64,000 bases of DNA from Escherichia coli (GCF_024298765.1 NZ_CP101211.1), one strand, 5' to 3'; shown: positions 29,120 through 53,608, counted from the stretch's first letter. The notes: a model not told the origin generated them from the letters alone. Program-made: numbers and translations.

Positions 29120-31709
<2,590 letters not shown>

Positions 31710-31714
31710 CTGAT

Positions 31715-32314: not shown

Positions 32315-32480
32315 ATAACTTGGGCTTTGCGCATTAAACCCTTGCCGCAGGCGGTGTACCGCATATCCGGCACAGACAGTCAGTTTTTTCTGGCAGCTTA
32401 AATTTGACACTGCTTAATATAGTGATTCATTAAACAGGTTCAGTATGCTGCCAGAACGTTTTAGTCGTAATGGGCGTCCG

Positions 32481-34034
32481 TTAGTTTTCAACTAACTGAA
32501 CGACGACCAGCCTGCCGCCTTCCTCCTTTGACAGAACAAACTGAGCGTTATTCGTCAGTTCAATTTTTTCCCCAATGGCAATCTGTCGTTTATCCGGTAA
32601 TGACATAAGCCCATTTATGCCTTCATTTACTAACCACCACTGATCGTTATGGAAAACAAAATACCCAACTCGTTTCCTTTGTGCATCGGTTGTGCGCTCA
32701 TTTGGCGCAATGAGGCGATTCACATGCCACGCATAGATTGACTGCCCGCTCCACACCATCAACCGGTGGTCGTCAGGACGATAACTGCCTTCCTTTCGGG
32801 ATGAATATAAATTTAGAACCGGTAATTTACCCTTGTATGGCGTACCGCAGTAGGGACAAACCGGCTTTGTCTTACCTGAGAAAACGTACCATTTCTGTTC
32901 ACACGCCTTGTTCTGGCAGGGCTGTATCAGATCGACTGTTTTAACCAGGGCACTTTCCCACTCATCGGCGGTCGGGCGTTTATTGGCATCGTGTAAGCCA
33001 TCAATAAAGGCGCGTTCAAACAAAGGCGTCAAATAAGGGCCCATGATGGTGTAAGGAATTTTCTCCGGGTCAGCCCAGGGCAGTGAAAAGGAGGATAGCT
33101 GACTGACTTTGACTGCATTGCTTTTGTCTGTCGGATGTTCAATGAAGAGTGCCTTCTCACCCATAGATAAGGTCTCATCACGTACTTCATCCGACATGTC
33201 ATGTATTTTTCCGCCACGTAGCGGATGACGGAAGAACAGATACATGTAGATAAGCACCGACAGCGCATGACGGTCAGTAGAAATGCTTGGCAATACGCGG
33301 TTCGGATCCTCTTTGGAAAGATGGCTGGTTTTCACCACTTCCGGAGCGATAAAATCCGGGGTGCCCACGACGTCGGGAGGATACTTTCCAGGGACAACCA
33401 GGCCGTCTACGTCAATGATGCAGGCATGTCCCATTTCTGGATCGATAAGCACGTTTTTATAGCTTAGATCGCTGTGACAGAGACCTGCCGCATGCATCCT
33501 TCTGACGGCTCTTGTTAGCAGCAGACAGACCTTGAGATAGGTAAGCGTATTGCCTCGTTCACGTGGGTCGAGAAATTTATTCTGGTTGCTGGCGCTGGCA
33601 AACCATTTGCCTTCCTTTTCACGGCCTTTTATGCCAAGAAAATCATCGTTTTTAGAGCCGTATTTAAAGAAAAAGTAGCTTTTGTAGGTTGGAACCACGA
33701 TGCCGATTTTATCCCCATGCTCAACAACGTGGGTCGGCCAGCAAAACAGGTCCTTCCAGTATTCACCTCCGGACTGGCCAAAAATGTTTTGCCTGTAGCG
33801 TCCGGTGATCATATCAATCCGATCCCGGGCCTGCTCGTTCTGCGGTTTATGATAAAAAGCGACGACGTATGATTTATCAGGCGAGAAGTAAACATCCTTC
33901 ATCGAGCCCGAACCAATTACCTCGTCAACATACTGGACTGTTTCGCCGTCCTTTGTTTTGCACGTAACAATATTTGCCATATTGATCACCGAAGAAGCGT
34001 ATCCCTTACCACAACACCGCAATAGTGCGGTCAT
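32481..34034 (-). CDS. Ser/Thr protein kinase with C-terminal Zn-ribbon (kinase of the ter-linked kinase/phosphatase/vWA triad)
   Basis: Gly-rich loop GSGSMKDVY, catalytic loop HSDLSYKNVLID, DVDG, APE-like FIAPE; C-terminal CQNKAC..CPYC. Confidence 0.7.
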   Translation of the reverse strand: MTALLRCCGKGYASSVINMANIVTCKTKDGETVQYVDEVIGSGSMKDVYFSPDKSYVVAFYHKPQNEQARDRIDMITGRYRQNIFGQSGGEYWKDLFCWPTHVVEHGDKIGIVVPTYKSYFFFKYGSKNDDFLGIKGREKEGKWFASASNQNKFLDPRERGNTLTYLKVCLLLTRAVRRMHAAGLCHSDLSYKNVLIDPEMGHACIIDVDGLVVPGKYPPDVVGTPDFIAPEVVKTSHLSKEDPNRVLPSISTDRHALSVLIYMYLFFRHPLRGGKIHDMSDEVRDETLSMGEKALFIEHPTDKSNAVKVSQLSSFSLPWADPEKIPYTIMGPYLTPLFERAFIDGLHDANKRPTADEWESALVKTVDLIQPCQNKACEQKWYVFSGKTKPVCPYCGTPYKGKLPVLNLYSSRKEGSYRPDDHRLMVWSGQSIYAWHVNRLIAPNERTTDAQRKRVGYFVFHNDQWWLVNEGINGLMSLPDKRQIAIGEKIELTNNAQFVLSKEEGGRLVVVQLVEN

Positions 34035-35646
34035 CGTGGTTCCCTGTGGAGAAAAAGTTAAGCCAGTCGCCTAACCTCTCAGGCGCAATACTGGCGTCTG
34101 TAAGGACAGGGATGAGCTCATCAAGGAGACGGGTCCATTTTTCGTCACTGCGAAGCCCGTTATCTGTCTCAAACAGAGGGTCTGATACGCCATCTGTCAT
34201 GAGGATCAAGTGAGATACATCATTCCATTTACCCACGCTGATGCGGCCGCTAAACGAGGGGTCTGCGATAATGCTCTGGTCAAGAAAGCGGGTTTGTCCT
34301 GCGTATTCTCCGCTATCGGGATTTCCCAGTATCCTGACTTTACCGGAAGGGCTGTATGCACCTATCGCACCATCACCAAGCCAGAATGCAGCCGCAAACA
34401 GCTCGTTATCAGTTCGTAGCGCTACAGTTGCCAGTAGGGTTGTTGAATAGGATTTCACAGGTTGTTCTGCACAAATGGCTTCGTTCTGGATACTGTTGAC
34501 CGCGAGCGTAGCTGCCTGTTTAAAATGATGAAGCATGGCGTTTATGGTTGCCTGCTGATCGCTCCCTTCCCACGCCGTGATGTGCTGCTTTAGATGGACG
34601 CCTTTCAAACCACTGAGCTGATTGAAAAGGTAATCGCCAGCCGTTTGGACTGCAATCCGGGAGCCTTCCCGGGAATTTACCGCACTACCGGCCCCGTCTG
34701 CGACCAGCATGACAGACCATCCTGTTTCCTGGCAGTGGTTGATATAGAAGTCGTCATCTCTGAAGCTCCCGGCATGCTCATGAGATCGTCCCCGGCGACT
34801 GGCGGCAGCAATACGTATGTCACCCCTGACCAGGCCAGCAGCGTCCAGATGGGACTTAGGGTAGGAAGCGTCTGCTGGTGGCTCTACCACCTTCCACAGG
34901 CTTCTCGGATCGGGATTGACTATAAAAAGCTGTTTTGTTTCGCATTCGTCGTGCGAAGCGCATGACCAGAGTACTGAAAGCTCTATATCGCCGCTTTCGG
35001 TGGGTGTACCTGTCAGCAACTTATGCTCTTTGTCAAAGGTCAGGCCAATGTTCCTGGGAAAGACAACGTCCCTGACAGTAGCCTGCTGGCCCTCATCCAG
35101 AACTATAGCAACCGGCGAAGAGAAACGTTCGCCTGCGCGGGCGTTGGGAATAACTATTTTAGCTCTCGGGGGAACGGCAGGTGGCACAGCTAATCCGGCC
35201 CGCTGCTGGCCTGTCGGTATCTGCCCGGGTTTTAATACCAGGGAAGACAGGTTTTCGTCTTCCCTCTGTGCTGGTTTATCAAATTCGTAATAAGGCATCA
35301 GCTTCCAGAACGGAGGATGAGGTTCATTTTCTGGCAGGGGTTGCAGTAATGGTGTATCGGTAGCGTCAATGCCCGGGTTATCAGCATCACTTACGACCGT
35401 TTGTTGCTGATCGGAAAGGCTGGATGCTGACGAGGGGGCGATCTCTGCGTCGTTATAACCTTCGCTAACCCGCGCAGATAAACCCTGTGCAAGGCTCTCA
35501 ATCCGCTCTTTAAGCCGCATAATCTCTTCAGTAAGGGAAGGGTCGTGCGATAGAAGAAAAAGCCGCTCACCTTCTACAGGGTGGCCCAGCTCAGACAGCA
35601 CTAAGCGGATAATCTTCTCTTCAAGTAAAACATTTTGCGACATCAA
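34006..35646 (-). CDS. PP2C-family Ser/Thr protein phosphatase with long N-terminal extension
   Basis: PP2C-like blocks RGRSHEHAGSFRDDD, MLVADGAGS, LMTDGVSD; start overlaps end of the upstream vWA gene. Confidence 0.65.
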   Translation of the reverse strand: MMSQNVLLEEKIIRLVLSELGHPVEGERLFLLSHDPSLTEEIMRLKERIESLAQGLSARVSEGYNDAEIAPSSASSLSDQQQTVVSDADNPGIDATDTPLLQPLPENEPHPPFWKLMPYYEFDKPAQREDENLSSLVLKPGQIPTGQQRAGLAVPPAVPPRAKIVIPNARAGERFSSPVAIVLDEGQQATVRDVVFPRNIGLTFDKEHKLLTGTPTESGDIELSVLWSCASHDECETKQLFIVNPDPRSLWKVVEPPADASYPKSHLDAAGLVRGDIRIAAASRRGRSHEHAGSFRDDDFYINHCQETGWSVMLVADGAGSAVNSREGSRIAVQTAGDYLFNQLSGLKGVHLKQHITAWEGSDQQATINAMLHHFKQAATLAVNSIQNEAICAEQPVKSYSTTLLATVALRTDNELFAAAFWLGDGAIGAYSPSGKVRILGNPDSGEYAGQTRFLDQSIIADPSFSGRISVGKWNDVSHLILMTDGVSDPLFETDNGLRSDEKWTRLLDELIPVLTDASIAPERLGDWLNFFSTGNHDDRTIAVLW

Positions 35647-36683
35647 CCTCTCCCTCTGTTTACGTCGAAGTTAGTGTTTCCGCCATCATTGCTGAATGAC
35701 AGACCTGTTTCACACCACGGGCAGATCACGTCATCCGGGCCGTCAATGCACAGCAATTTTCCGCATGAGCACAGGGCAAACGCACTGGCATTACCGCAGT
35801 GAGGGCAACCCGGTACGCCATGCAGTTCGCTGGTGTTTACCTGCAAACCGGTAGCGGTGGCATCTGACCATGCAAAATAGTCTTCATCGATGGGATAGCA
35901 TCCGGCAATATTAAAGCTGTTCAGGTTCAGGCTGAAATCGAGCCCGGAAATCCTTGCTGGTGGCCGTTCATACTTCATCAGATACGGACGACGGGTCTTG
36001 CTGCAACGGCCGGTAAGCGTAACGCAGTTTTCGTCGTACGCTTTTACTGGCTCGTCCTTGGCCAGCCGGACTATGTATTCAGTCTGGCTGAGCTCAGGTT
36101 GTTTGTCGTCTCCGACGCTGCGGCTGTGCGCCGTAACCGAGGCTGTGATCCATTTGATGAAGCGGGTAAAGTCCCCTTCCTGAGACTCGGTGAACAGCAT
36201 GACATTCTCTGTCAGTTGCCGCAGGGTATTCAGGTCCGCTGACGGCCCCAGGCCAACGGCAATGAGATTCACTTTACTCGCGTAGTGATCCTTCCAGCGC
36301 TTCACTTCTGCGGTTGTGTCGTCAGTCGGACGTCCGTCGGTAAGGAGATACACGACGGGTTTCCAGTCGCCTTTAGCCTCATGAGTGGTTTTTCTGACCT
36401 GGGTATCAATTTGTACGGTCAGCTCACGCAATGCGGCCCCAAGGCTCGTACCGCCGCCAACGGGAAGGCGGGGAGGGTAGAACGAGGCAATTTCGTGAAG
36501 AGGTACAATCGTACGGGCTACACCGGCAAATGCGATTACCGAAACCCAGGCTGTTTCAAGTGCGTGTGGATCCTTTCTTAAATCTCCGATGATCATTTGC
36601 AGACCATCAGTCATTTTTTTCAGGTTTTCACCAATCATGGACTCTGAACAGTCCAGGACAAAAAACACGGGAAGGCGTCTCAT
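35643..36683 (-). CDS. vWA-domain protein with C-terminal Zn-ribbon (TerY-like member of the triad)
   Basis: Starts MRRLPVFFVLDCSESM (MIDAS DxSxS) with RBS gaggaaaatt; later LLTDGRPTDD; C-terminal CPHCG..CSCG..CPWC; the 414-aa track ORF has a spurious upstream extension. Confidence 0.65.
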   Translation of the reverse strand: MRRLPVFFVLDCSESMIGENLKKMTDGLQMIIGDLRKDPHALETAWVSVIAFAGVARTIVPLHEIASFYPPRLPVGGGTSLGAALRELTVQIDTQVRKTTHEAKGDWKPVVYLLTDGRPTDDTTAEVKRWKDHYASKVNLIAVGLGPSADLNTLRQLTENVMLFTESQEGDFTRFIKWITASVTAHSRSVGDDKQPELSQTEYIVRLAKDEPVKAYDENCVTLTGRCSKTRRPYLMKYERPPARISGLDFSLNLNSFNIAGCYPIDEDYFAWSDATATGLQVNTSELHGVPGCPHCGNASAFALCSCGKLLCIDGPDDVICPWCETGLSFSNDGGNTNFDVNRGRG

Positions 36684-36768
36684 AATTTTCCTCGTACGGC
36701 TGGTACGGCCAGCAGAAAACGTTGCTGTACAGAAAGGTGCTGCCCGGAAAGCAGCACCTTTCTGTCTG

Positions 36769-37410
36769 TCAGAGCACCAGCTGGATTTCTGGTGGAGGAG
36801 GGGGAAGGGTATCAGTTCCGTTATTGATCCCCGCGCTTGTGCTGCCGGAAGACACGCTGGCCGATACCCATTTAAAGAAACCTGCAAACGCGGTTGAATC
36901 TAGCGTCTCCAGAGACACAACCTTATCGGTGAGCTGTTTTAAGTGCTCATGGCCTGCTTTAGGACCAACGGCGCAGGCAATGATGGATCCGAATCCCCGG
37001 CCGCGAATCGCTTTTACCGCTTCACCGTACGCCAGGGCATCAGAAGGGGTTCCATCAGTCATCAGGAATACCAGAGGACGCCAGTCTCCTTTTGTATCAC
37101 CATCTGAGCGACGTACATCCCGTTCAACACACTGCATCAGACATTCAAGGGCAGCACCGGTGAACGTCCCGCCTGCGCTTGGCACAACGATGTCAGAAAA
37201 CTGGAAGTCTTCCAGCGGCGTGAGAGGAATGAACTCACGCGCCTCATTGTCATAGGTGATAATGGAGATATGAACGCTTTCGAGGGCGTAGGGATCCTGG
37301 CGAAGAGCGCTAAGCATCGCCTGAATTCCAACGTTAACGGAATGGATGGACTCACCGCGCATCGAGCCGGATGTGTCGATAACAAGGTAAACAGGCAGGC
37401 GGCGCATCAC
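36769..37410 (-). CDS. terY: Tellurite resistance vWA protein TerY
   Basis: 213 aa; MMRRLPVYLVIDTSGSM .. FLMTDGTPSD vWA/MIDAS; immediately upstream of terX. Confidence 0.7.
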   Translation of the reverse strand: MMRRLPVYLVIDTSGSMRGESIHSVNVGIQAMLSALRQDPYALESVHISIITYDNEAREFIPLTPLEDFQFSDIVVPSAGGTFTGAALECLMQCVERDVRRSDGDTKGDWRPLVFLMTDGTPSDALAYGEAVKAIRGRGFGSIIACAVGPKAGHEHLKQLTDKVVSLETLDSTAFAGFFKWVSASVSSGSTSAGINNGTDTLPPPPPEIQLVL

Positions 37411-38048
37411 ATGTAATTCCTCAGGTGCGAGACAAACGAATCTGATTCTGAAGGCTCACCAATTGCCCTGAGTTTCCAGCCTGTAGCCTCGCGTATCAGC
37501 TCGGCAAAAACCATGGAGCGCTGGCTGGCGAAGGCGGGTCCGCCAGAAAGATCGAATCGTGCCATTTCAATATTACGGGCATCTACTGCCCGGATGAAGG
37601 CATTCTGAACTTTACCAAAGTGCTGCTGGAGCTTTTCACCATTGTAGATCTGAACGATGAACACAATTTTCTCGTACTGAGCGTCAAGGGAATTCAGGCG
37701 CACAATAATTTGCTCATCGTCACCATCACCGGCTCCGGTTCGGTTATCGCCCGTCAGCCAGATATTTCCTGACTTATGGCGAAGGCTGTTGAAAAAGATG
37801 ATATCGCCATTCACAAGCGTTGGTTTACCATTTTCCACATTGCCGAGATCGGTCACCTTTCCGGCTGAATTACACAGGAAAGCGATCACATCAAGGTCGT
37901 ATTCTTCTTCTTTTTTACCAAAGATCCCGCCGAGGAAACCTTTCTTTTCCTCATTAATATCCCAACCCAGGCCGATAGTAACGGACGAGAGATCGTATTC
38001 ATTTTTTTTCAGGCTTACGCCCTGGCCTTTGCTCAGACTGACAGACAT
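37407..38048 (-). CDS. terX: TerD-family protein TerX
   Basis: 213 aa; [21 protein letters not shown] and GDNRTGAGDGDDE hallmark blocks of the TerD/TerZ/TerE family. Confidence 0.7.
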   Translation of the reverse strand: MSVSLSKGQGVSLKKNEYDLSSVTIGLGWDINEEKKGFLGGIFGKKEEEYDLDVIAFLCNSAGKVTDLGNVENGKPTLVNGDIIFFNSLRHKSGNIWLTGDNRTGAGDGDDEQIIVRLNSLDAQYEKIVFIVQIYNGEKLQQHFGKVQNAFIRAVDARNIEMARFDLSGGPAFASQRSMVFAELIREATGWKLRAIGEPSESDSFVSHLRNYM

Positions 38049-38070
38049 GACATCCCCTTAATTAATAAAA

Positions 38071-38709
38071 TTATAAGACCACGTTTACTTCTGGCGGCGG
38101 CGGTGGCAGGTCTTCAAGACCGATCACTTCTTTTTTGCTGGACTCCACTTTCTGACTGCCTACCGAAATGCTCGCACTGACCCATTTAAAGAAAGCTTTA
38201 ATCGTCGAACTGTCAGCTGTATCGAGCTGAACCACGATTTCAGTGATTTCTTTGAGGACGCTGGTATCGGCATCATGCCCGGCTGCACATGCCACAACAA
38301 CGCCGGTTCTGGCCGCTTTAAAGTCATTCAGGCCTTTACGCCAGTCATCATTCGGACTTCCATCCGTCATCAGGAATACAAGGGGACGCCAGTCACCTTT
38401 AGTGTCAGCCGTCGTTTTCTGTACTTCTTTGGCAATGGAGCTGGCCGTGAGGGAAAGCGCTTCGCCAAGAGAGGTGGTGCCGCTGGCTGTTAGTGCTGGC
38501 ATCTGGAAACTCAGGAGGTCTGTCAGGGGGACTGCCTGTCGGGCTGAAGAATCAAAGGTGATCACTGACACGTAAGCCGTTTCGAGTGCATACGGATCCT
38601 GTTTCAGCGTGGTAAGCAGCGTCTGAACGCCATTCTTAACCGCTTCGATAGGCTCTCCGTGCATAGAGCCGGACGTGTCGAGTAGCAGATATACGGGTAA
38701 GCGTCTCAA
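38071..38709 (-). CDS. terY: Tellurite resistance vWA protein TerY (second copy)
   Basis: vWA with RRLPVYLLLDTSGSM .. FLMTDGSPND; probable TTG start after RBS aaggaa giving ~212 aa (track ORF extends to 38790). Confidence 0.6.
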   Translation of the reverse strand: MRRLPVYLLLDTSGSMHGEPIEAVKNGVQTLLTTLKQDPYALETAYVSVITFDSSARQAVPLTDLLSFQMPALTASGTTSLGEALSLTASSIAKEVQKTTADTKGDWRPLVFLMTDGSPNDDWRKGLNDFKAARTGVVVACAAGHDADTSVLKEITEIVVQLDTADSSTIKAFFKWVSASISVGSQKVESSKKEVIGLEDLPPPPPEVNVVL

Positions 38710-39171
38710 ATGTAATTCCTTCTTAAGAGATCGGAAGAGGAGAGTAGTTTCAGGAAGAGGCCAGAGTTTGTAGATTTGATAAAACGGCACGACATCTGTC
38801 GGGTGGAGATTAAATACTCAGAAGCGGCATTAAAGAAATAAGTTAACCACCATTGAATTACCGACATGTGAATGGCCTCTTATCAGAGAAAAAAATTCAG
38901 ACCGTACTGGAATATAAATTTCTGAAAAAAACTCCGGCAAAAATAAACTTTCTTATGTATGAAAATCATCATACATCACAGATCTGCATGAATGGAGTGT
39001 AAATCGCCCAAAGATTGATGTGTAGCACAAGAGGATGTCAAGACACCAGGTTTTGTAGGCAGAAAGGCGCTGCTGACATTGCGGGAGGAGAATAGATCAA
39101 AACTCCGTCACGCAGATACAGAGGTGAAATATGACAAAACCGGGGTTTTCACCCCGGTCTGAGATTTAGCG

Positions 39172-39639
39172 TCAGGACTTTTTAGCGCTGTATTCTTTTA
39201 TCAGTTCATCAACGGAGTGCAGAGCCAGCTTCTCTACCGCTTCACTTCGGGTCGAGCCACTCAGCGCAGCCAGACGGTCAATTTTTCTTAAAATCCGCAT
39301 GCGTAGCGATAATGACACGGCTGTTTTTTTATCCTTATCGAGTACGACCTTCCCTGTGGACTCACCGGTTTTCAGTTCAGCATTCTGTGCGAGCGCTTCA
39401 TTCATCCGGCGAAGGGTCTTTTTATCCAGCTGGCCCGGATTAACGAGATGGTAGGAATGACCTGCCTTGCTGTATTTGATCTCCGCAGAATATGACTCGC
39501 GTAGCTCTTTGAGTGCCCGGGTTAATGTCGGCTCTGAGCATTCCAGACTGGTTATAATGTCGGCAGCGGAAACGGGCTTGCCGGTGCCCAGTAAGTTGGC
39601 AAGCTTAAAAATCCGGGCCTGTCTGGTATTTAATTGCAT
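39172..39639 (-). CDS. terW: Putative DNA-binding regulator TerW
   Basis: 155-aa basic ORF with HTH-like N-terminal segment, at the position terW occupies beside terY/terX in known ter islands. Confidence 0.5.
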   Translation of the reverse strand: MQLNTRQARIFKLANLLGTGKPVSAADIITSLECSEPTLTRALKELRESYSAEIKYSKAGHSYHLVNPGQLDKKTLRRMNEALAQNAELKTGESTGKVVLDKDKKTAVSLSLRMRILRKIDRLAALSGSTRSEAVEKLALHSVDELIKEYSAKKS

Positions 39640-39656
39640 CGTAAGATTTAGCCTGC

Positions 39657-40865
39657 TTAAAGGGTTAGTGGTTCAATAGGCTGAAAAATGAAGGTACTGC
39701 TCATCTTTCGAATAACCGGGTGATCGCCTAACGCTTCAACCGGATCAATGTGTTCTAAGCCTGCAAAATTTACTGACGACATCTGGCTGCGACTGCATTT
39801 GCAGGACAGGATATACTCATCCTCCAGATAGCCGGTCCGCTTACTGACCCGTTGCGTAAAGCCTGACACAATCACGTTGTCGAACGGTAGCGTATGTAAA
39901 ACGATACCGACCAGGCGGAACAAGCAGCCATGGACGTGGCGGGCATAGTTTTCGCGTACGGCTTTTTGCGTCATGGCTTTTTCCGTCAGCTCCGTGCCCC
40001 GGGCATTAACGCCGTAAATCTTATCAGGGAAATCTTCAATCTCAGCTAAATCAACATCCAGCAGGACTGCTGATAGCTCCGGCTTTACTTCAAATGCAAC
40101 AAGCGTTTCACGCGGCCATTCAGTTTCTGCCAGCACACCCGCCAGGTATGATTCGAAAAACGCGGCGTCTGTCCGGAACTGCTGCCGGGCATCTGCCTGA
40201 GCCGTGGCGAGCCGTTTTTCATGTTCTTCAGCCTCAAACTTCCAGTTTGCATACTGTTCGGCCCAGGCCGTCCGTTGTTGCTGGTACCGGTGCTGTCGAA
40301 GGGTATTCTCACGCTCCACATCAATCAGCTCCTGCTGCCACCGGCGAAGATTTTCGGCGTGGCGCTCAGCTTTAGCTGATTCCGATTCAAACCATTTACC
40401 CAGAAAACTAATGCCTTCGCTCTCGGCAGGCTTTTCCGGCAATGCAAGATAGTCTGGCTTTTCTGGACGCACCGGTGCCGGAACCTGAAAAGGCGACGTT
40501 CTGTTATGCAGGTATACTGCTTCCAGCTCTGCCCAGCTGATGCCTGTTTTAGGATCCGGCGTCAGCTCGTGAATATTACGGATTGCGGTCACCGCTGACA
40601 TGAGATCAGCGGCTTCCTCCTCAAGCGCCTGTCTGAGCCCCGGGTCGGTAGCCGTCCGGTTCCCACCTCCGGAACGCGCGGCCCGATCAAGCCGGGTACG
40701 GTAACTCAGCCCGGTACCGGGCAAGCCCAGATTGGCATAGGTCCCCCGGCTTCCAAAAGAAACAGAAGCACCTCTCGGCCCGACACTCAGGCTCGGTGCA
40801 CCGTTACTCAGGTTGAGGCGAACACCAGGAATAATGTTGATCGACTTTCTGAATCTGAACCCCAT
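39657..40865 (-). CDS. Hypothetical ter-associated protein with coiled-coil core
   Basis: 402 aa; N-terminus MGFRFRKSINIIPGVRLNLSNG..; central R/Q/E-rich helical region. Confidence 0.4.
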   Translation of the reverse strand: MGFRFRKSINIIPGVRLNLSNGAPSLSVGPRGASVSFGSRGTYANLGLPGTGLSYRTRLDRAARSGGGNRTATDPGLRQALEEEAADLMSAVTAIRNIHELTPDPKTGISWAELEAVYLHNRTSPFQVPAPVRPEKPDYLALPEKPAESEGISFLGKWFESESAKAERHAENLRRWQQELIDVERENTLRQHRYQQQRTAWAEQYANWKFEAEEHEKRLATAQADARQQFRTDAAFFESYLAGVLAETEWPRETLVAFEVKPELSAVLLDVDLAEIEDFPDKIYGVNARGTELTEKAMTQKAVRENYARHVHGCLFRLVGIVLHTLPFDNVIVSGFTQRVSKRTGYLEDEYILSCKCSRSQMSSVNFAGLEHIDPVEALGDHPVIRKMSSTFIFQPIEPLTL

Positions 40866-40875
40866 TATGATTTCC

Positions 40876-42911: not shown

Positions 42912-42912
42912 T

Positions 42913-43686: not shown

Positions 43687-44827
43687 AGGTAACAATCTCC
43701 ACGACGGGCGCAACCTCAGCCAGGGCTTTAAGAAGCTGCGTGTCAATACTTTCTGCGGGTGTCTCAGTACACACAAGAATACGGTCAAACTGCTGGTGGG
43801 CGACGTTATAGACAAAATTGGGGATGCCCAGCCCGTAGTTATCCGTAAAGGAAATGGCGGACTCAATGGCATAACCAACGGCGATAGGGGAGCGGGTGGT
43901 CGAACCATAAAGTGCCTGTGCTCCGGCAGCTTCGAGCCGTTCAGCAAGCAGGAACGGCTCCCAGACGAATTCCCCGGTCCCGAGAACCAGAATACGTTCC
44001 CCCTTGCGGACGGAGACCTCATGGCCGAGATCGGCCGCAGGTGCGAGCATCCCCAGTCGACCCCAGGACTGTTTTCCCAGGATGTCCCATTCTCCGCGTG
44101 AAGTTACGTTGACTTTCGGCATGTCCGGGACAGGTGCATCAGGTAATGGGGTCCATCCCCACTGACCGCTTACAAGCGAAACCGAAGTGACGGGCAAGGA
44201 TGTGCGCTCCGACAGGGCGTTGCTACTCCAGTCGGTAAGCGTAACGGCGATAACCTGTTCAATATGTTGAAGCTTGCCGGTATTACGCAGGGCAGAAAGC
44301 AGGTTAATAAAGGTATTACCGGTGGTTGCCTCGTCATCAATCAAAACCAGCGTTCGTGCGTTGGTAACACGACGTCTTTTCTCTTCATCATCTGGCAGAT
44401 AGATCAGATGATCGGTGGCGTGGCTGTGTTCTTCCTTGAACTCGCAAAGTAACGTGCCATCAACCGGGTGACGGGTAGAGGTCAGATAGACAGATTCACG
44501 ATGCTGGTGGCGCACTTCATCAAACACACCGGCCCCTAGCCCAACGGCGGTTTCAGCCATACCGATAAAAAGTACGGGCCCTGTCAGCGTTGCGGGGAAC
44601 TGGCTGGCAAGCTGTCTGTAGGCCTGCCGCATGACTGAGGGTGGCACGGGAATGTGCCTGCCGAGTACTTTGCTGACAAACAGAAAGGCGCGTTTCGGGT
44701 TACGTCTTTCAGCGATATCAAACAGGTCATCGAGCGAAACATCACCCTGGTCGCGGGTTACCTGTATCGTACCGCATGAGAGGGTACGGCGATAAATCAT
44801 ATCTTCGAGGGTATCAGACATAAACAC
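43679..44827 (-). CDS. Phosphoribosyltransferase-domain protein
   Basis: 382 aa; PRPP-binding motif VLIDDEATTGNT typical of type I PRTases. Confidence 0.65.
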   Translation of the reverse strand: MFMSDTLEDMIYRRTLSCGTIQVTRDQGDVSLDDLFDIAERRNPKRAFLFVSKVLGRHIPVPPSVMRQAYRQLASQFPATLTGPVLFIGMAETAVGLGAGVFDEVRHQHRESVYLTSTRHPVDGTLLCEFKEEHSHATDHLIYLPDDEEKRRRVTNARTLVLIDDEATTGNTFINLLSALRNTGKLQHIEQVIAVTLTDWSSNALSERTSLPVTSVSLVSGQWGWTPLPDAPVPDMPKVNVTSRGEWDILGKQSWGRLGMLAPAADLGHEVSVRKGERILVLGTGEFVWEPFLLAERLEAAGAQALYGSTTRSPIAVGYAIESAISFTDNYGLGIPNFVYNVAHQQFDRILVCTETPAESIDTQLLKALAEVAPVVEIVTYE

Positions 44828-44830
44828 GCC

Positions 44831-45889
44831 TTAATTCAGATGGTTAGAGAGTGATTCCGGGTAAACGATGACATCTGTGATGGATCTCACTGCAACCGGA
44901 GAAAAGGTATTTCTGGCGCTCTGGATCACCGCATCTTCAGACATCAGACCGAGCTTAAAGGCAGCAAACAACCCGGGAAGGTTCACCCCGCTGTGAAGGG
45001 TATAACCCACCCCGCCTGACGGACGCATGTTGGTTTCAAGCAGCACCGGGTTGCCATTCACATCGTTTCGCGTCTGAACATTCACCAGCCCGTCGGCCTT
45101 CATAACCCGGGCGCAGTCACAAGCCAGTTCCCAGGCGCTTCCTTCGTTTACCAGATACTGGATAGCCCCTTCCTTACGGCGTCCCACGGCTGCGAGTATT
45201 TCGCCCTTATCCGCGAGGATATCGACGGAAAATTCCGGGCCTGGCAGGTACGGCATCAAAACAAGGGGTTTAAACGACTCAGAAGCCGATGCTGCTGCAA
45301 TATACTGTTGCGGACTGACCAGACGATGTTCGGGATGATTAAAGACGGCCATGGGCGAAGCACTGTCATCAAAGCGCCAGAATCCCATGCCATAGATACC
45401 CGTCACCGGCTTCACGCATACCGGGCTGTCCGAGAACGGCGGGGCCGCGAGGTGCGTCTTTAATTCTGCCAGCGTATTCACCCGCCAGGACGGTACGACC
45501 GGGAGCCCGTTTTGCTCCATAAACTGAGCAAAAGTAACTTTTTCGTCAGCCAGAGTTAACCAGTCGACGCCTGTTGCACCGGTAGTAAGGGTGGCTCCGG
45601 TCGATTCAATGGCTGAACGGTGTTCTTCAAACCACTGGCTGTTACGGCCAGTATGAATATGGTGGATGCCGTAGGTCTGAATGGTTTCCTGAATAAACTG
45701 AAGACGTTTTTGAGGATCTTCAGGTTCAGTCAAAGAATAATCGGCAACGGAAAGAATTTCATGTCTTTCGTTACGGTGGGAGGCAAATACGGTAATAGCA
45801 AAATTATTTTTTTGTGCAAATGATTTTACCCCCTGAATAATATCTCGCTGGGAGGACAAACCTTCCATAAACCAAATTTTCTTGTTCAT
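44831..45889 (-). CDS. ATP-grasp-fold ligase-like protein
   Basis: 352 aa; size, position and Gly-rich segments consistent with the ATP-grasp gene found beside PRTase in ter islands. Confidence 0.5.
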   Translation of the reverse strand: MNKKIWFMEGLSSQRDIIQGVKSFAQKNNFAITVFASHRNERHEILSVADYSLTEPEDPQKRLQFIQETIQTYGIHHIHTGRNSQWFEEHRSAIESTGATLTTGATGVDWLTLADEKVTFAQFMEQNGLPVVPSWRVNTLAELKTHLAAPPFSDSPVCVKPVTGIYGMGFWRFDDSASPMAVFNHPEHRLVSPQQYIAAASASESFKPLVLMPYLPGPEFSVDILADKGEILAAVGRRKEGAIQYLVNEGSAWELACDCARVMKADGLVNVQTRNDVNGNPVLLETNMRPSGGVGYTLHSGVNLPGLFAAFKLGLMSEDAVIQSARNTFSPVAVRSITDVIVYPESLSNHLN

Positions 45890-46212
45890 TTTTTTTAATT
45901 ATCCGGAACGCCATGCAAATTTATGATTGAGAAGTGAGTCTATGAGTGTCTACGCTACATGTCAATCATAATATGATTAATAACTTCAGTGGTTATGGAG
46001 TGCGTCAGTGTTTTTTTTAGTGCCTTATAACGTATTGATATTTAAATTAAAAATAGAAAAATGAACACCATGAAAAGGATTTATTTTTGTGTTTTTGAAG
46101 AAAACTACCAAAATTTCCCTTGTCAGAGAACTTCATCATGATATGATTTTCTTCGTCAGTTACTAAATATACCTTTGATTGTCTCGGTCATTACCATTTT
46201 AAGGAATAAAAC
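45890..46212. promoter_or_regulatory. AT-rich divergent intergenic region between ATP-grasp (-) and terZ (+); presumed promoters
   Basis: 323-bp AT-rich non-coding stretch between divergent operons; RBS aaggaat before terZ. Confidence 0.35.
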
Positions 46213-46794
46213 ATGGTTTCATTAGTTAAGAACCAGACGGTATCACTCAGCAAAGAATCATCTGCATTAAGCCAGCTTCATTTCGGTCTCGGTTGGGATC
46301 CGGTTAAGAAAAAAGGTCTTCTTGGAGGATTGTTTGGAGGCAACGACTCAATCGATCTCGATGCTGGCTGCGTATTAATGGACAGCACCGGTAAAACAAT
46401 TGACACCATCTGGTTCCGCAAACTGGAATCCACCTGCGGCGCTGTTGTGCACAGTGGCGATAACCTGACCGGTGAGGGTGACGGTGACGATGAGGTGATT
46501 AAGGTCAACCTCTCCCGACTGCCTGCAAACGTTGAATACCTGGCGTTTACGGTAAACAGCTTCCGTGGTCAGTCGTTCAATGACGTCGAAAACGCGTTCT
46601 GCCGCGTTGTCGATCAAACCGGCAAAGAGCTGGCTCGCTACAAGCTGACTGAGCAGGGCTCACATACCGGGATCGTTATTTCTTCGCTGCGCCGTAATAA
46701 CGGCAACTGGGACTTTACCGCCCTTGGCCATGCCTGTCGCGGCCGCACAATTGACGATATGCACTCCGATATCGTTTCAGCGGTTATTCGCTAA
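46213..46794 (+). CDS. terZ: Tellurite resistance protein TerZ (TerD family)
   Basis: 193 aa; FGLGWD and [13 protein letters not shown] blocks. Confidence 0.8.
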   Translation: MVSLVKNQTVSLSKESSALSQLHFGLGWDPVKKKGLLGGLFGGNDSIDLDAGCVLMDSTGKTIDTIWFRKLESTCGAVVHSGDNLTGEGDGDDEVIKVNLSRLPANVEYLAFTVNSFRGQSFNDVENAFCRVVDQTGKELARYKLTEQGSHTGIVISSLRRNNGNWDFTALGHACRGRTIDDMHSDIVSAVIR

Positions 46795-47951
46795 TGAACC
46801 TGACGCCGGGGGGCAATGCCCCCGTTCCAGCCCAGGAGTTGCGGGTCCGGATCACCTCGGGCGGCCAGGTGGATGCTTCGGCGTTTCGCCTGTATGCCGA
46901 CGGGAAGGTGCAGGGTGATGCGGACATGGTGTTTTATGGTCAGCCACGTAACGATGATGGTACCGTCAGCCTGGTCAGTGAAGGCCAGTACTCAACCTTT
47001 ACTGTCGCGCTCAACCGGCTGAAACCTGATGTCCAGAAAATTGCGTTCACCGTGACCTGTGACGGTGGGCAGACGGTGTCCGGTCTTCGTAATCTTTCCA
47101 TCGACGTGGAGCAAGGGGCTACCGGCCTGGTTAGCGGCAGTGTCGAACTGAGCGGCCGTCAGGAAGCAGCCTTAATTCTGGGTGAATTTTACCGTCGTAA
47201 TAATGACTGGAAATTCCGCTTCGTTGCGCAGGGGTTCAACGGTGGACTTAAACCGCTGGCAGAGCATTTCGGCGTAAATATTGCCGACGAACCGGCTCCC
47301 GCAGCCCCGACTCCTCCGGTTGTAACCCCTCCGCCAGTTGAGACAAAAATCAGCCTGAGCAAGGTATCGCTGACAAAAGAGAAGCCTGCAATCAGCCTGA
47401 CCAAACGGGATAACTTCGGTGAAATCCGGATCAACCTGAACTGGCACCGGGGCAGCGGCAAATCAGGCTTTGCAGGCATGTTCGGCTCCAAAGGAATCGA
47501 CCTGGATCTGGGGGCCTTTGTTGAGCTTCAGGACGGGTATAAATCGGTCATTCAGGCGCTCGGTAATGCATTCGGTAATTATCGCGATGAACCGTATGTT
47601 CAGCTCAAGGGCGATGACCGGACGGGTGATGTATCAGACGGCGAGTGGCTGCATATCAATGGACGTGAATGGAAGCATATCCGCGAAGTGCTGATTTACG
47701 CCTTTATTTATGAAGGTGTTCCCAGCTGGGACAAGACTGATGGTGTGGTCACCATTCATGTGCCGGATCAACCGCCCATTGAGACCCGCCTGACCGAAGG
47801 TGAAAACCGTCGCACATTGTGCGCCATTGCCAGACTCGTAAACGAAAACGGCGCAATTAAAGTCGAGCGAATTAACCAGTACTTCAAAGGCCAGGACGAA
47901 ATGGACCGGGCATTTGGCTGGGGATTTCGCTGGAGCGCCGGTTCTAAATAA
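46794..47951 (+). CDS. terA: Tellurite resistance protein TerA
   Basis: 385 aa; start overlaps terZ stop; TerD-like N-terminal domain plus C-terminal extension. Confidence 0.75.
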   Translation: MNLTPGGNAPVPAQELRVRITSGGQVDASAFRLYADGKVQGDADMVFYGQPRNDDGTVSLVSEGQYSTFTVALNRLKPDVQKIAFTVTCDGGQTVSGLRNLSIDVEQGATGLVSGSVELSGRQEAALILGEFYRRNNDWKFRFVAQGFNGGLKPLAEHFGVNIADEPAPAAPTPPVVTPPPVETKISLSKVSLTKEKPAISLTKRDNFGEIRINLNWHRGSGKSGFAGMFGSKGIDLDLGAFVELQDGYKSVIQALGNAFGNYRDEPYVQLKGDDRTGDVSDGEWLHINGREWKHIREVLIYAFIYEGVPSWDKTDGVVTIHVPDQPPIETRLTEGENRRTLCAIARLVNENGAIKVERINQYFKGQDEMDRAFGWGFRWSAGSK

Positions 47952-47973
47952 CACAGCAACAAAGGAAACAGGT

Positions 47974-48429
47974 ATGAGCTTTTTCGACAAGGTAAAAGGT
48001 GCCATTAACTCTGGCCGGGACGAACTGACCCGCCAGGTTGGTCGTTTCAAAAACAAAAAATTTATGCACGGCACCGTTGCTGTATGTGCCCGTATTGCCG
48101 TATCGAGTGACGGCGTGAGTTCGGAAGAAAAGCAGAAAATGATGGGCTTTCTTCGCTCTTCAGAAGAGCTGAAGGTCTTCGATACCAATGAGGTGATCGA
48201 GTTCTTCAATAAACTGGTTTCAAGCTTCGATTTCGATGTTGAAATCGGCAAGGGCGAAACCATGAAATACATCCTGGCGCTGAAAGATCAGCCTGAGGCC
48301 GCTCAGCTGGCCTTACGTGTTGGTATTGCCGTTGCGAAAAGTGACGGTAACTTCGATCAGGACGAGAAACTGGCCTCCCGCGAGATCGCTATCGCGTTGG
48401 GCTTCGACCCGGCTGAATTTGGCCTCTGA
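47974..48429 (+). CDS. terB: Tellurite resistance protein TerB
   Basis: Starts MSFFDKVKGAIN with RBS aaggaaacagg; 151 aa (track ORF begins 60 nt upstream inside terA end). Confidence 0.75.
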   Translation: MSFFDKVKGAINSGRDELTRQVGRFKNKKFMHGTVAVCARIAVSSDGVSSEEKQKMMGFLRSSEELKVFDTNEVIEFFNKLVSSFDFDVEIGKGETMKYILALKDQPEAAQLALRVGIAVAKSDGNFDQDEKLASREIAIALGFDPAEFGL

Positions 48430-48451
48430 TCCACATCCCTAAGGGTAAAAT

Positions 48452-49492
48452 ATGGTTTCCACACACATCGGCTTCCCGACTGAAACGGTCATTGTTTTCA
48501 TTGCGCTTTCAGTCGGTGCCATCTTTATTGACCTGTTTATGCACCGTGATGACAAGCCCATTTCCCTGAAGAGTGCGGCGCTCTGGTCCGTATTCTGGGT
48601 TGTGGTTGCGATGGCATTTGCCGGTTTCCTCTACATCCACCACGGTGCTGAGGTTGCCAGCCTGTTTGTAACGGGTTATGCGCTGGAGAAAGTGCTGTCG
48701 GTCGACAACCTGTTTGTCATGATGGCCATCTTCTCCTGGTTCGCCGTTCCTGATCGTTACCGCCACCGTGTTCTCTACTGGGGGATCATTGGTGCCATCG
48801 TCTTCAGGGGCATCTTTGTCGCCATCGGTACGAGCCTGCTGAGTCTGGGGCCGTATGTTGAAGTTGTCTTCGCTATCATCGTCGCCTGGACGGCGGTCAT
48901 GATGCTTAAAAGCGGTGATGACGATGATGAAATTGAGGATTATTCCCAGCATCTGGCTTACCGCATGGTTAAACGCTTCTTCCCTATCTGGCCGAAGCTC
49001 AGAGGTCATGCTTTCCTGCTTAACCAGAAGGAAGTGGATGCCGAACTGGCGAAACCAGAAAACAGCGATGTCACCATTGGCCGTGGTAAAAAGGCGGCGC
49101 TGTATGCGACCCCTCTGTTCCTGTGTGTGGCCGTGGTTGAACTCTCGGATGTTATGTTTGCGTTTGACTCGGTACCGGCAATCATTGCCGTCAGTCGTGA
49201 ACCGCTTATCGTCTATAGTGCCATGATGTTTGCTATCCTGGGCCTGCGTACTCTGTACTTTGTCCTTGAAGCACTGAAACAGTACCTGGTTCATCTGGAG
49301 AAGGCCGTTATCGTGCTGCTGTTCTTCATCGCGGCAAAACTGGGCCTGAATGCGACCGATCACATTTGGCATCATGGTTACAGCATCGCGGCGACAACCA
49401 GCCTGTATGTTGTACTGGGTGTTTTGGCGCTGGGCATTCTCGCAAGCGTCATGTTCCCGGGCAAACCTGAATCTGAGGAAAAGGGGAGCTGA
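48452..49492 (+). CDS. terC: Integral membrane protein TerC
   Basis: 346 aa, multiple transmembrane helices; position in operon. Confidence 0.8.
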   Translation: MVSTHIGFPTETVIVFIALSVGAIFIDLFMHRDDKPISLKSAALWSVFWVVVAMAFAGFLYIHHGAEVASLFVTGYALEKVLSVDNLFVMMAIFSWFAVPDRYRHRVLYWGIIGAIVFRGIFVAIGTSLLSLGPYVEVVFAIIVAWTAVMMLKSGDDDDEIEDYSQHLAYRMVKRFFPIWPKLRGHAFLLNQKEVDAELAKPENSDVTIGRGKKAALYATPLFLCVAVVELSDVMFAFDSVPAIIAVSREPLIVYSAMMFAILGLRTLYFVLEALKQYLVHLEKAVIVLLFFIAAKLGLNATDHIWHHGYSIAATTSLYVVLGVLALGILASVMFPGKPESEEKGS

Positions 49493-49540
49493 TCCCCTGA
49501 AGTGTTAACCTGAACAATTACTAATCGAAGAGGTTATTTT

Positions 49541-50119
49541 ATGAGTGTTTCTCTTTCCAAAGGCGGGAACGTCTCCCTGAGTAAAGCAGCTCCGTCAATG
49601 AAAAACGTCCTGGTGGGCCTTGGCTGGGATGCGCGTTCAACAGACGGTCAGGACTTTGACCTGGATGCTTCAGCATTCCTGCTGGCCGCAAATGGCAAAG
49701 TGCGCGGCGATTCAGATTTCATCTTCTATAACAACCTGACGTCATCTGACGGTTCCGTAACCCATACCGGTGATAACCGTACCGGTGAAGGTGATGGTGA
49801 TGATGAATCGCTGAAAATTAAACTGGACGCCGTCCCGTCTGATGTTGACAAGATCATCTTCGTTGTCACTATCCATGATGCTCAGGCTCGTCGCCAGAGC
49901 TTTGGTCAGGTATCCGGTGCGTTTATTCGCCTGGTCAATGACGATAACCAGACTGAAGTCGCTCGCTACGATCTGACCGAAGATGCGTCCACTGAGACTG
50001 CCATGCTGTTCGGCGAGCTGTATCGCCACAATGGTGAGTGGAAATTCCGCGCAGTGGGCCAGGGTTATGCTGGTGGTCTGGCATCTGTATGTGCTCAGTA
50101 CGGCATTAACGCGTCCTGA
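49541..50119 (+). CDS. terD: Tellurite resistance protein TerD
   Basis: 192 aa; [33 protein letters not shown]. Confidence 0.85.
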
Positions 50120-50186
50120 TCGAAAAGTAACTTTTCACCCGGGGCTGTTAATGCAGCCCTCATTCAACTGTTTGCAGGAGCTAAAA

Positions 50187-50762
50187 ATGGCAGTTTCTCT
50201 CGTAAAAGGCGGCAACGTATCTCTGACCAAAGAAGCACCAACCATGAATATCGCTATGGTTGGCCTCGGCTGGGATGCCCGTGTAACTGACGGTCAGGCT
50301 TTTGACCTGGACGCTTCCGTGTTCGCAGTAGGCGAAGACGGTAAAGTGCTGTCAGATGCGCATTTCATTTTCTTCAATAACAAAACCAGCCCTGATGGCG
50401 CGGTAGAGCACCAGGGCGACAACCGTACCGGTGAAGGCGACGGTGACGATGAGCAGGTCAAAATCGATCTGACCAAAGTCTCAGCAGATATCAAAAAACT
50501 GGTGTTTGCCGTTACCATCTATGATGCAGAAGCGCGTAAACAAAACTTCGGCATGGTGAGCAACAGCTTCATGCGCGTTTACAACAACGACAACGGCACG
50601 GAAATTGCCCGTTTCGATCTGTCTGAAGATGCCTCAACCGAAACCGCTATGGTCTTCGGTGAACTGTATCGTCATGGCGCTGAGTGGAAGTTTAAAGCTG
50701 TCGGTCAGGGCTTTGCCGGTGGCCTGGCGGCTCTTGCCTCCCAGCACGGCGTTAACATCTAA
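50187..50762 (+). CDS. terE: Tellurite resistance protein TerE
   Basis: Starts [15 protein letters not shown] with RBS gcaggag; 191 aa; paralog of terD. Confidence 0.8.
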
Positions 50763-50779
50763 AACAACGCTGAATCATA

Positions 50780-50804
50780 CCCCGGCAATGCCGGGGTTTT
50801 TTTT
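50780..50804 (+). terminator. Intrinsic terminator after terE
   Basis: CCCCGGCAATGCCGGGG hairpin followed by TTTTTTTT. Confidence 0.65.
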
Positions 50805-51190
50805 GGTTGCGATCCGCTTTCAGGAGGGAGTAGTAGAAAGGGGACTGGAAATTTCAGAAAGCAGGTCATGTTAATTCAGACCTGAGCCTTTTAAAGGCAG
50901 GAAACGGATTTATCTCTGGTTGCTGGTTAAAGCCGGTATTCCGTGCCTTTTATCAACAGAATGCCCCTCTGATATATGTTACTTTTGCGGTTTATGAAGG
51001 AACGGGATCTGGAACATAAGATACCCGGTCAATCAAAATTCCAGTTCAACAGGTATAGAAACTTCAGCGTGATGAAATATGGTGTCACACCATATATACG
51101 CCTCACCAGAAATCCAGCGTCCTGAACTAAGCCTGGGGAACATATATAAGCGCTGCGCTTTAAAAATAATCAAAAATCAGGAGAGTTAAT

Positions 51191-52432
51191 GTGAATCTAC
51201 AATCCGGACAAAACATACCGCTTCAGCAATCTGCGATCAGGCTGAATCTTCAGTACCCTGCCAAATCCGGCTTTAAAGGCGAACCCGATACCTGCCTCTT
51301 CCTGCTTAATGCTCAGGGAAAGGTAACCGGCGATTCTGACTTTATCTTTTATAATAATCTGTCTTCTCCTGAAGGGGCAGTAAAGCTCGTTACCGGTTCT
51401 CAGCAGTCCAGCATTGAGATAGCACTGGATCGTGTTCCGGCGAACGTCAGTAAGATTGCGATCACCGTTGTCATTGATGGTGAAGATACTATCAGTGGGC
51501 TCAGTTTATTGAGCATTCAGGCTCCTGGTATCGCTGATTTTCAGGCTGAGACTCAGGGCCGCAGTGAGAAAGCAATCATCCTGGGTGAAGTATATCGGCA
51601 CAATGGCGCCTGGAAGCTTCGTGCGCTCGGGCAGGGTTTCAACGGTGGTCTTGAGCCTCTGGCCATTAGCTTTGGCGTTGATGTCGCACAGCCAGCTCCG
51701 CAGCCAGCAAAGCCTGCTCGTATCAGTCTGGAAAAGAAACTTGAAACCAGATCTCCGCGCCTCGTAAGCCTCGCTAAAAAAGCCTCGGTCAGTCTCACTA
51801 AAAATAAACTGGACACCCTTGAGGCAGCGGTTGCATTTGTACTTGACGCATCCGGCTCAATGAGTGGCCAGTTCAGTAAGGGCAACGTTCAGTCTGTGCT
51901 GGACCGCATCGCCGTTCTTGCCGCCCAGTTCGACGACGACGGTGAAATGGATGTCTGGGGATTTGGAGAGAAGCACAAGAAGTATCCAAACGTCACACTG
52001 GACAACCTGGACACATATATTCAGTCCATTCGCGGGTCTGGAAAGCGTTCAGCCTGGGAGAACCTGCCGGGACTTGGTGGGACAAACAATGAGCCCCCTG
52101 TGATGGAAGAAATTGTCGACTACTTTAAGGACTCGAAAATCCCGGTATATGTTGTATTTATTACCGATGGCGGGATCAGCAAGACCCGGGCGATTAAAGA
52201 TGCAATCCGGCGTTCTGCCAACTACCCCATCTTCTGGAAGTTTGTCGGCCTGGGTGGTTCAAGCTACGGTATCCTCAAAAATCTGGATGACTTTACTGAC
52301 CGCCGGGTTGATAACACCCACTTCTTTGCCATGGATGATTTCGGTTCGATCAGCGATGAAAAGTTATATGATAATTTACTGGAAGAATTCAGACCGTGGA
52401 TCGATGAAACAAAAAGGTTAGGCATCCTGTAA
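51191..52432 (+). CDS. terF: Tellurite resistance protein TerF (TerD-like N-domain plus vWA-like C-domain)
   Basis: 413 aa, GTG start after RBS aggagag; C-terminal DASGSM and ITDGG blocks. Confidence 0.65.
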
Positions 52433-52994
52433 TACGCACAGTTTTCGCATGGTTAAAGGAGCTCTACAGCAGCTTAATACTGTAGAGCCTTTGTTCACTG
52501 GAAATCGTACAGGGAGGAGCATATGGACCGCATCAAGTACCTGAAATGGATAGCTGAAGAATCACCAACTGATGATGAAATCGACAACTACGATAGTATC
52601 ATTAGTCGGGGCGCAGAAAGGGCCGAGAAGGTTCAGTTGTCTTTAAGACGTTAATATACGGGAGTTTAAATGTTCGCAGAAATCAAAGATAATTATTCGT
52701 TAGGTGGATAAAGAAAGGTTGCCATTACCAGCTTTCGACGAGTCGAAAATAAAAACCTTATTTATAGTGACAGGGAGTATGAGCTGACGCTTGCCAATGG
52801 AACAATAATTAAAAATGTACTTAGAAAAGAAGAGTGGGAACTGTTAGAAAGCAATTCAATTAAGGTTATATTATAACGAAAATATATTTACAGTTTTGGA
52901 TAGGTTTCAAACGAGTCCGGACATTTGTACCTGAAGTATCTGACATTACAGTTAAGTGACGATTATGCCAGCACGTCTGTTGCTGGCAGCTTAG

Positions 52995-53276: not shown

Positions 53277-53325
53277 ACTTAGTCCTTAAGAAAATTTGTC
53301 ATCGGAAAATAACACGAAGCCTGCA

Positions 53326-53517: not shown

Positions 53518-53608
53518 AATCTAACCTCCCTTATAATGAAAAATGGCGCTTTACTTCTGACCAGATGCCGAAGCCTTGAATGCAGCCGGAACTGTCGTTG
53601 TTTCTACT

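Follow-up and report, generated by a model that had tools for sequence, protein, structure and literature searches.

A GC-rich ter cassette beside an AT-rich IncHI2 plasmid backbone: a probable late acquisition whose limits are not marked by composition

We have analysed a 64,000-nucleotide stretch of Escherichia coli DNA (GCF_024298765.1, NZ_CP101211.1; here called the window, with positions counted from its first letter) that carries a ter cassette of 19,952 bp and 20 genes at 32,481–52,432. The uneven base composition of this stretch is very probably that of a mosaic, in which an AT-rich IncHI backbone carries a later-acquired 20-kb ter cassette with a G + C content (GC) of ~51%. By its sequence, the window is a stretch of a well-known IncHI2 conjugative resistance plasmid. 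It is the same base for base as pEC21Z137-237K (NZ_CP101234.1, E. coli, IncHI2A) over 22,197–64,000 and differs from it by one single-nucleotide polymorphism over 1–21,428, the sole structural difference being an added insertion sequence, IS1, at 21,429–22,196. The ter interval is found with 100% identity over its 19,952 bp in more than 25 IncHI2 plasmids, many of them IncHI2A-typed. The history that we propose has three steps. The IncHI backbone beside Tra2 would have been AT-rich from ancient times, with ter a neighbour of a different history; ter would have entered IncHI2 between a CoiA_N-domain gene and a gene for a 130-residue hypothetical protein, long after the IncHI lineages split; and recombination would later have swapped segments between it and the ter cassettes of other lineages.

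The initial annotation had noticed by eye that the block at 7–27 kb is AT-rich and that at 32–52 kb GC-rich, and this contrast is real and far beyond chance. The GC is 0.401 over 7,001–27,000 and 0.513 over the cassette, compared with 0.459 for the window and 0.463 for the whole 237-kb plasmid. All 20 ter genes have a GC at third codon positions (GC3) between 0.52 and 0.63 (pooled 0.554), as against 0.27–0.39 (pooled 0.329) for the 14 genes at 7–21 kb (Mann–Whitney p = 1e-6); the gap extends to all three codon positions, with the third showing the biggest. The relative synonymous codon usage (RSCU) of ter is likewise distinct, with no correlation to that of the tra genes (r = 0.09) or of the AT-rich block (r = 0.04). 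On the 237-kb record, a gap of 0.112 between 20-kb blocks at the same spacing is reached at 1.9% of positions, all of which represent the same pair of blocks, and the difference between 7–27 kb and ter is the biggest such contrast of the plasmid. The former belongs to the 20 kb with the lowest GC on the plasmid (minimum 0.390); if the resistance region is set aside, the ter block is the 20 kb with the highest.

The visible contrast arises largely from an unusually AT-rich, conserved backbone block and not from an unusual ter. The genes at the core of this block (7,232–20,667, + strand) have a GC of 0.32–0.45 and a GC3 of 0.27–0.39. Its AT-richness is kept in the IncHI1 orthologues (GC 0.35–0.46) and is therefore an old trait of the backbone. 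The block as a whole is uneven, with a GC of 0.387 over 4.9–24.1 kb, 0.453 over 24.1–28.6 kb and about 0.56 in IS1. The ter genes themselves have a GC of 0.50–0.52 in every context: 0.504 in p8025 (NZ_KP899803.1, a pNDM-CIT-like plasmid), 0.519 in a Klebsiella variicola plasmid (~76% identity) and 0.515 in the E. coli chromosome. In p8025 the left flank is at 0.47–0.495 and the right flank at 0.46, so that hardly any step is visible there; the contrast is striking in IncHI2 because the cassette lies ~10 kb from the AT-richest backbone of the plasmid.

The evidence for acquisition comes from comparison with relatives. For IncHI1 we used one complete plasmid, from Salmonella Typhi (NC_016825.1), searched with every protein of the window. 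This plasmid has collinear orthologues of all the window's genes between 784 and 32,314. For the 20 ter genes it has none, and the same holds for the four small genes that follow as far as 53,950, after which the backbone resumes (54,294–55,036, + strand) with the 130-residue hypothetical gene at 54,323–54,715 (GC 0.555; 95% amino acid identity to IncHI1). The last backbone gene to the left of ter, at 29,273–32,314 (+ strand), encodes a protein of 360 residues when intact, with the Pfam domain CoiA_N and with orthologues in IncHI1 and in pNDM-CIT-like plasmids. From this CoiA-like gene to the 130-residue gene the distance in IncHI1 is 1.4 kb, and no ter remnants are found between the two in NC_016825.1.

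In p8025, the cassette is found at a second site. Only the ter block of the window is matched by blastn, with 94.7% identity over 32,480–50,802 and 80.9% over 51,267–52,431, and the homology stops at the outermost stop codons of the cassette, those of the kinase gene and of terF. The p8025 cassette has a dsbA-family gene on one side and a HAD hydrolase gene on the other; the site between the CoiA-like and hypothetical genes is contiguous and empty in this plasmid and likewise in NZ_CP114565.1. In IncHI2 and IncHI1, dsbA and umuC are 45–51 bp apart, that is, the site used in p8025 is empty. The divergence of the two cassettes also differs greatly from that of the plasmids which carry them. Between IncHI2 and p8025, four-fold-degenerate sites are 84.8% identical in ter (1,639/1,933), and in the backbone only 30.1% (247/821) on the Tra1 side and 36.8% (85/231) from Tus to the hypothetical gene, values near saturation. 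The cassettes therefore diverged from a common ancestor long after the backbones had parted.

The identity to p8025 is patchy along the cassette, being 0.87–0.94 at 32.5–37 kb, 0.98–1.00 at 37.5–41.9 kb and 48–49.5 kb, and 0.60–0.86 at 50.5–52.4 kb, and this unevenness points to recombinational exchange between cassettes. The most diverged part comprises the terE–terF spacer and terF (50,763–52,432; 60–86% identity), and terF is the most diverged ter gene between the lineages. A separate patch of low identity occurs in the N-terminal half of the PP2C phosphatase gene, where 34,981–35,480 is 71% identical to p8025 at the nucleotide level with flanks of ~90%; the protein is 78.5% identical and its neighbours at least 95%. 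The patch may be a region of sensing or interaction that is under diversifying selection.

Comparison with chromosomal ter islands gives a further context for the same genes. Copies with 97% identity are present in E. coli islands of the O157 type that bear iha, where they correspond to 39,108–51,496 or to 38,578–52,497 of the window and are cut by IS66 on both sides. This agrees with a published study in which the IncHI2 type is classed as ter-type 2 and IS66 is described as flanking chromosomal ter operons (Nguyen et al. 2021, PMC8193136). The proposal of the initial annotation that ter is a horizontally acquired module is thus upheld in its conclusion, on the grounds of the absence from IncHI1, the second site, the chromosomal copies and the low synonymous divergence; the reasoning by which it was reached, from IS100 and from composition, is weak.

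The cassette is organised in three transcription units. Unit 1 (32,481–38,709, − strand, GC 0.509) has the order terY (VWA), terX (TerD), terY (VWA), TerY_C/VWA, PP2C phosphatase and Ser/Thr kinase, as assigned by Pfam and translation. The C-terminus of the kinase shows a CxxxxC...CxxC motif in translation, which gave no domain-model match but resembles a zinc ribbon and is consistent with the kinase bearing one. Unit 2 (39,172–45,889, − strand, GC 0.533) encodes, by Pfam, ATP-grasp, PRTase_2/TRSP, HAD-like, StiP/PELOTA, C-C lyase and DUF4236 proteins together with terW, and can be described as terW plus a putative biosynthetic operon of six genes; a terminator-like hairpin follows it at 39,160–39,137. 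Between its ATP-grasp gene and terZ lies an AT-rich region (45,890–46,212, GC 0.30), a candidate divergent promoter region on the basis of consensus matches only, the best sigma-70-like sites being at 45,965–45,937 (− strand) and 46,120–46,147 (+ strand). Unit 3 (46,213–50,797, + strand) is terZABCDE; its products are TerD-domain proteins, TerB and TerC, a membrane protein. At its end, a strong terminator-like hairpin (50,779–50,797) sets it apart from terF (51,191–52,432, + strand), which has a TerD and a vWA-TerF-like domain. The TerD paralogues, TerB, TerC, TerF-vWA, ATPgrasp_Ter, PRTase_2/TRSP, StiP, C-C_Bond_Lyase, DUF4236, TerY VWA, TerY_C, PP2C and kinase assignments all score above the Pfam gathering threshold; the helix-turn-helix-type matches of terW and the S6PP match of the HAD-like gene fall below the cut-offs.

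From its identity with the R478 ter cluster, we infer that the cassette would confer tellurite resistance, phage inhibition and colicin resistance, the three phenotypes attributed to R478 ter (Whelan 1995, as cited in PMC8193136 and PMC8115787). In E. coli K-12, terZ–F alone is enough for tellurite resistance (PMC8115787). The proposed parts are a membrane-associated complex of TerC, TerD and TerB, a predicted nucleoside-like metabolite and a kinase/phosphatase switch. The metabolite is the predicted product of the biosynthetic cluster (Anantharaman 2012, as cited in PMC8115787). As for the switch, the TerY-P triad is described as a TerY-like VWA protein, a PP2C phosphatase and a Ser/Thr kinase encoded in one operon (PMC11090510, and Anantharaman 2012 therein), and related modules are cited there as antiphage (Gao 2020, in PMC11090510). 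Unit 1 has VWA/TerY_C, PP2C_2 and Pkinase domains in adjacent genes on one strand and is a module of the TerY-P type, which is proposed to act as a phosphorylation switch. In the classical triad the kinase is fused to a zinc ribbon and in the antiphage version that has been tested to an OB-fold; the kinase of the window shows only the CxxxxC...CxxC motif.

Several observations weigh against the late acquisition of a discrete cassette. The main compositional change-point lies not at the cassette but 3.1 kb to the left of its border, where the CoiA-like backbone gene begins, and on the other side the RSCU of ter is close to that of the right-flank backbone genes (r = 0.80), so that composition fails to separate the two. 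The detailed comparison was made with one representative each of IncHI1 and of the pNDM-CIT-like plasmids (p8025). There is no mobility scar: ARAGORN found no tRNA in the 64-kb window, the two cassette borders have no direct or inverted repeats of at least 12 nt in common (one 11-mer is shared, which is about chance level) and there is no cassette-linked recombinase. What the sequences show directly is the composition, the borders, the structure of the insertion sequences, the gene order, the second site and the gap in divergence; the direction and mechanism of the insertion, like the phenotypes given above, are what we infer. A comparative preprint favours a different history, in which ter is ancestral to the IncHI plasmids (bioRxiv 10.1101/334409). 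On the functional side, a PADLOC search with ten proteins of the ter block gave no significant defence-system match, with only weak, generic hits to the kinase (E about 1e-5) and none for the PP2C and VWA proteins, from a library that may lack a TerY-P model.

The cassette can be compared in these respects with a classical genomic island, with which it has in common the sporadic distribution, the accessory function and, in part, the compositional deviation. Classical islands have a tRNA target, an integrase of their own and flanking direct repeats (att), none of which is found for ter. The tyrosine recombinase gene at 27,354–28,529 was considered as the island's own and rejected, since IncHI1 and pNDM-CIT-like plasmids, which lack ter at this site, have it as a collinear part of their backbone. 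Absence from the same site in relatives, as expected of an island, is observed in both IncHI1 and pNDM-CIT-like plasmids. In composition the resemblance is partial: the GC3 of ter is 0.554 as against 0.329 on the left, but the codon usage differs little from that of the right flank and the change-points lie off the borders.

These compositional points raise the possibility, which we consider appreciable but do not favour, that the GC step mainly reflects a backbone of two domains, AT-rich on the Tra2 side and GC-richer from ~29 kb onwards, in which case composition would say little on acquisition. Change-points were located by likelihood-ratio segmentation with 200 permutations, repeated after removal of IS1 and IS100 in silico. 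One dominant change-point was found at 29,342/3 (GC 0.410 to the left, 0.500 to the right), with a likelihood ratio of 513–521 as against a permutation maximum of 24.5; its position is thus within a backbone gene, and remains 29,343 when the two elements are deleted (support interval 29,217–29,458). The change-point on the right is weak (50,751; GC 0.513 to 0.478; likelihood ratio 38–40) and lies at the terminator after terE, not after terF. To the right of the cassette there is a dip in GC only at 52,433–54,293 (0.437), with 0.48–0.55 over 54.3–62 kb and 0.48–0.555 in the backbone genes. The intermediate composition of 22.8–29 kb, the GC of 0.50–0.52 of the IncHI1 orthologue of the CoiA-like gene, and the near-absent step in p8025 also agree with a two-domain backbone. 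The ter genes are, however, uniformly above every neighbour in GC3, including the right flank (p = 0.007), and no other 20 kb outside the resistance region is as GC-rich. Moreover, a two-domain backbone is compatible with acquisition and is no substitute for it. With the change-points off the borders and a right flank of ter-like codon usage, composition does not delimit the island: the contrast that the initial annotation described is there, but of the step at each border there is only a strong one at 29,343 and a weak one at 50,751.

We consider it improbable that, as the authors of the preprint favour, ter belongs to the ancestral core of the IncHI plasmids and was lost by the R27-like clade, with relocation in some lineages and with a GC kept by selection on the genes. 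The topology of the ter tree mirrors that of the Tra tree and ter is present in all IncHI clades except the R27-like (bioRxiv 10.1101/334409), both as this history would predict. A lower divergence of ter than of the Tra genes is noted in the same preprint, and the four-fold identity between IncHI2 and p8025 (0.848 in ter as against 0.30–0.37, near saturation, in the backbone) is hard to reconcile with descent of both from the same ancestor. The two lineages also use different sites with reciprocal, clean empty sites, IncHI1 is free of ter remnants, and the near-identical patches (0.98–1.00) show recent exchange.

A more speculative idea, to which we would give just as little credence, is that ter moves between IncHI backbones as a precise, scar-less unit of ~20 kb by a mechanism not yet described, and that the contrast in composition is functional, the AT-rich backbone being silenced by Hha/H-NS and ter escaping. 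It is suggested by the ends of the cassette, which are the outermost stop codons and carry no insertion sequence, integrase, att site or target duplication.

Late acquisition of ter as a cassette thus remains our preferred explanation, and IS100 has no part in it. The initial annotation had placed IS100 at the left junction of the island. This element (29,756–31,709, + strand; IS21 family, 1,954 bp, istA and istB, GC 0.516) has terminal inverted repeats of 28 nt and a 5-bp target duplication of its own, CTGAT, and it lies within the CoiA-like backbone gene, which it splits into 29,273–29,755 and 31,715–32,314, so that its right end falls 771 bp short of the cassette. Excision in silico of IS100 with one copy of CTGAT restores an open reading frame of 1,083 bp that is 1 nt different from the intact gene of pMCR1-PA. 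IS100 is found at this place in 78 plasmid records, as against 1,228 records with at least 80% of the ter block; in most IncHI2 plasmids, the intact CoiA-like gene adjoins the same ter cassette. On these grounds, IS100 was rejected as an island junction and is a late simple insertion in a backbone gene, unrelated to the arrival of ter. A composite transposon has an insertion sequence at both ends and a duplication around the whole unit. That IS100 delivered or bounds ter in this or another way, as its proximity and its own high GC might have suggested, can be dismissed almost entirely, there being a single copy with its own duplication, precise restoration of the gene on excision, and no insertion sequence at the right end of the cassette. 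IS1 has a similar status: like IS100, it is a single element that entered a backbone gene at a later time and has no connection with ter. It is 768 bp long (− strand), lies within a 957-bp backbone gene with a 9-bp target duplication, TTCACGCTC, and produces a local GC spike of 0.56. The interrupted gene is a paralogue, 27% identical, of its left neighbour (19,729–20,667).

Among related systems, the closest is the ter cluster of R478 (ter-type 2, PMC8193136), which is in the same replicon family and has the same gene order, with 97.5–100% nucleotide identity over 20 kb. The cassette itself is no different in R478-like plasmids; the sub-lineage of the window is distinguished by IS100 in the CoiA-like gene and by a shorter tail to the right of terF. 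The chromosomal ter of E. coli (the O157-type TAI, SpLE1 or OI-43/48; ter-type 1) is alike in identity (97%), gene order and GC (0.515), but it is truncated by IS66 in terY and terF, lacks the terXY–PP2C–kinase genes and resides in integrative islands with iha. The p8025 cassette has the same 20 genes and the same end points and is 94.7% identical. Besides its different site in the backbone, it has an extra gene of 651 bp between terE and terF (30,347–30,997 of its locus) and a terF with only 81% identity. The Klebsiella ter (pK2044 type, with the IncHI3-like plasmid of K. variicola as an example) has the same organisation of terW–biosynthetic genes and terZABCDEF and a GC of 0.519. It differs in having ~76–78% nucleotide identity and a HAD gene after terF, and the example inspected lacks the terXY–kinase genes.

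The remainder of the window is described here for completeness. The IncHI backbone (784–28,912, + strand), known from the annotation of the identical record and from collinear IncHI1 orthologues, comprises trhN and trhI at the end of Tra2, conserved hypothetical genes and genes for an AAA ATPase, DUF3150, VWA, toprim and Tus-like proteins, the tyrosine recombinase and Hha. The AT-richest of its genes (16,789–20,667), encoding proteins of ~250–310 residues, have 48–55% amino acid identity to their IncHI1 orthologues, compared with 82–87% for trhN and trhI; they appear from their sequences to be fast-evolving and are conserved in position. No Pfam domains were found in five proteins sampled from this group. 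In several very close relatives the block at 7,000–27,000 is broken into 3–6 pieces, and in many of them mcr-1.1 is among the features annotated under the match to it; the window itself has no mcr-1.

To the right of terF, 52,433–55,300 is a variable hot spot among IncHI2 lineages. In the window it begins with an IncHI2-specific variable tail (52,433–54,293, GC 0.437) of small genes, one of them for a DUF7706 protein, without IncHI1 homologue. In R478-like plasmids (20,800–31,500 of the R478-like locus), the 130-residue gene is preceded by genes for an ATP-dependent helicase and a hypothetical protein and followed by three more, for a trypsin-like protease, a membrane protein and a second hypothetical protein. 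A second hot spot for accessory genes follows, where the window has the annotated toxin–antitoxin pair hipBA (55,319–56,942, + strand); this pair is not in IncHI1, which at the same position has a 12-kb cluster for urea carboxylase and a urea transporter (7,603–19,286 of its locus). The backbone at 57,734–61,848 has two HNH endonuclease genes and a 5'-truncated gene of the H-NS family. The latter is cut by IS26, which ends at 61,849, so that its native part is 61,565–61,848, the homology to IncHI1 hns is confined to residues 51–134 and the annotated open reading frame of 118 residues has its start within IS26. The plasmid's 'stealth' H-NS may thus be non-functional; the Hha gene (28,700–28,912) is intact. 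The window ends in the resistance region with IS26 (61,849–62,668), aph(3')-Ia (62,910–63,725) and the start of a second IS26 (63,849 onwards).

The ter cassette is thus an already known accessory module on a well-known plasmid family, and the mosaic is an ordinary one. IncHI2 plasmids are important vehicles of resistance genes, mcr-1 being borne by close relatives of the present one, and the ter cluster is a long-known accessory trait of the family. A published GC analysis specific to the IncHI2 ter region was not evident among the ten papers listed of 217 hits in our literature search, as judged by titles and abstracts. The map of the region is corrected in three respects: IS100 is irrelevant to ter, the limits of the module are 32,481–52,432, and GC alone is a poor guide to its borders. 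Beyond such housekeeping the import is small. What is mildly new is the quantitative evidence, drawn from sequence comparison, which suggests an acquisition or exchange of ter considerably later than the divergence of the IncHI lineages. The contrast at synonymous sites (0.85 as against 0.30–0.37) and the reciprocal empty sites argue against the suggestion of an ancestral core (bioRxiv 10.1101/334409), and speak rather for a later acquisition, with recombination still exchanging ter between the lineages, a point of modest interest to plasmid specialists.

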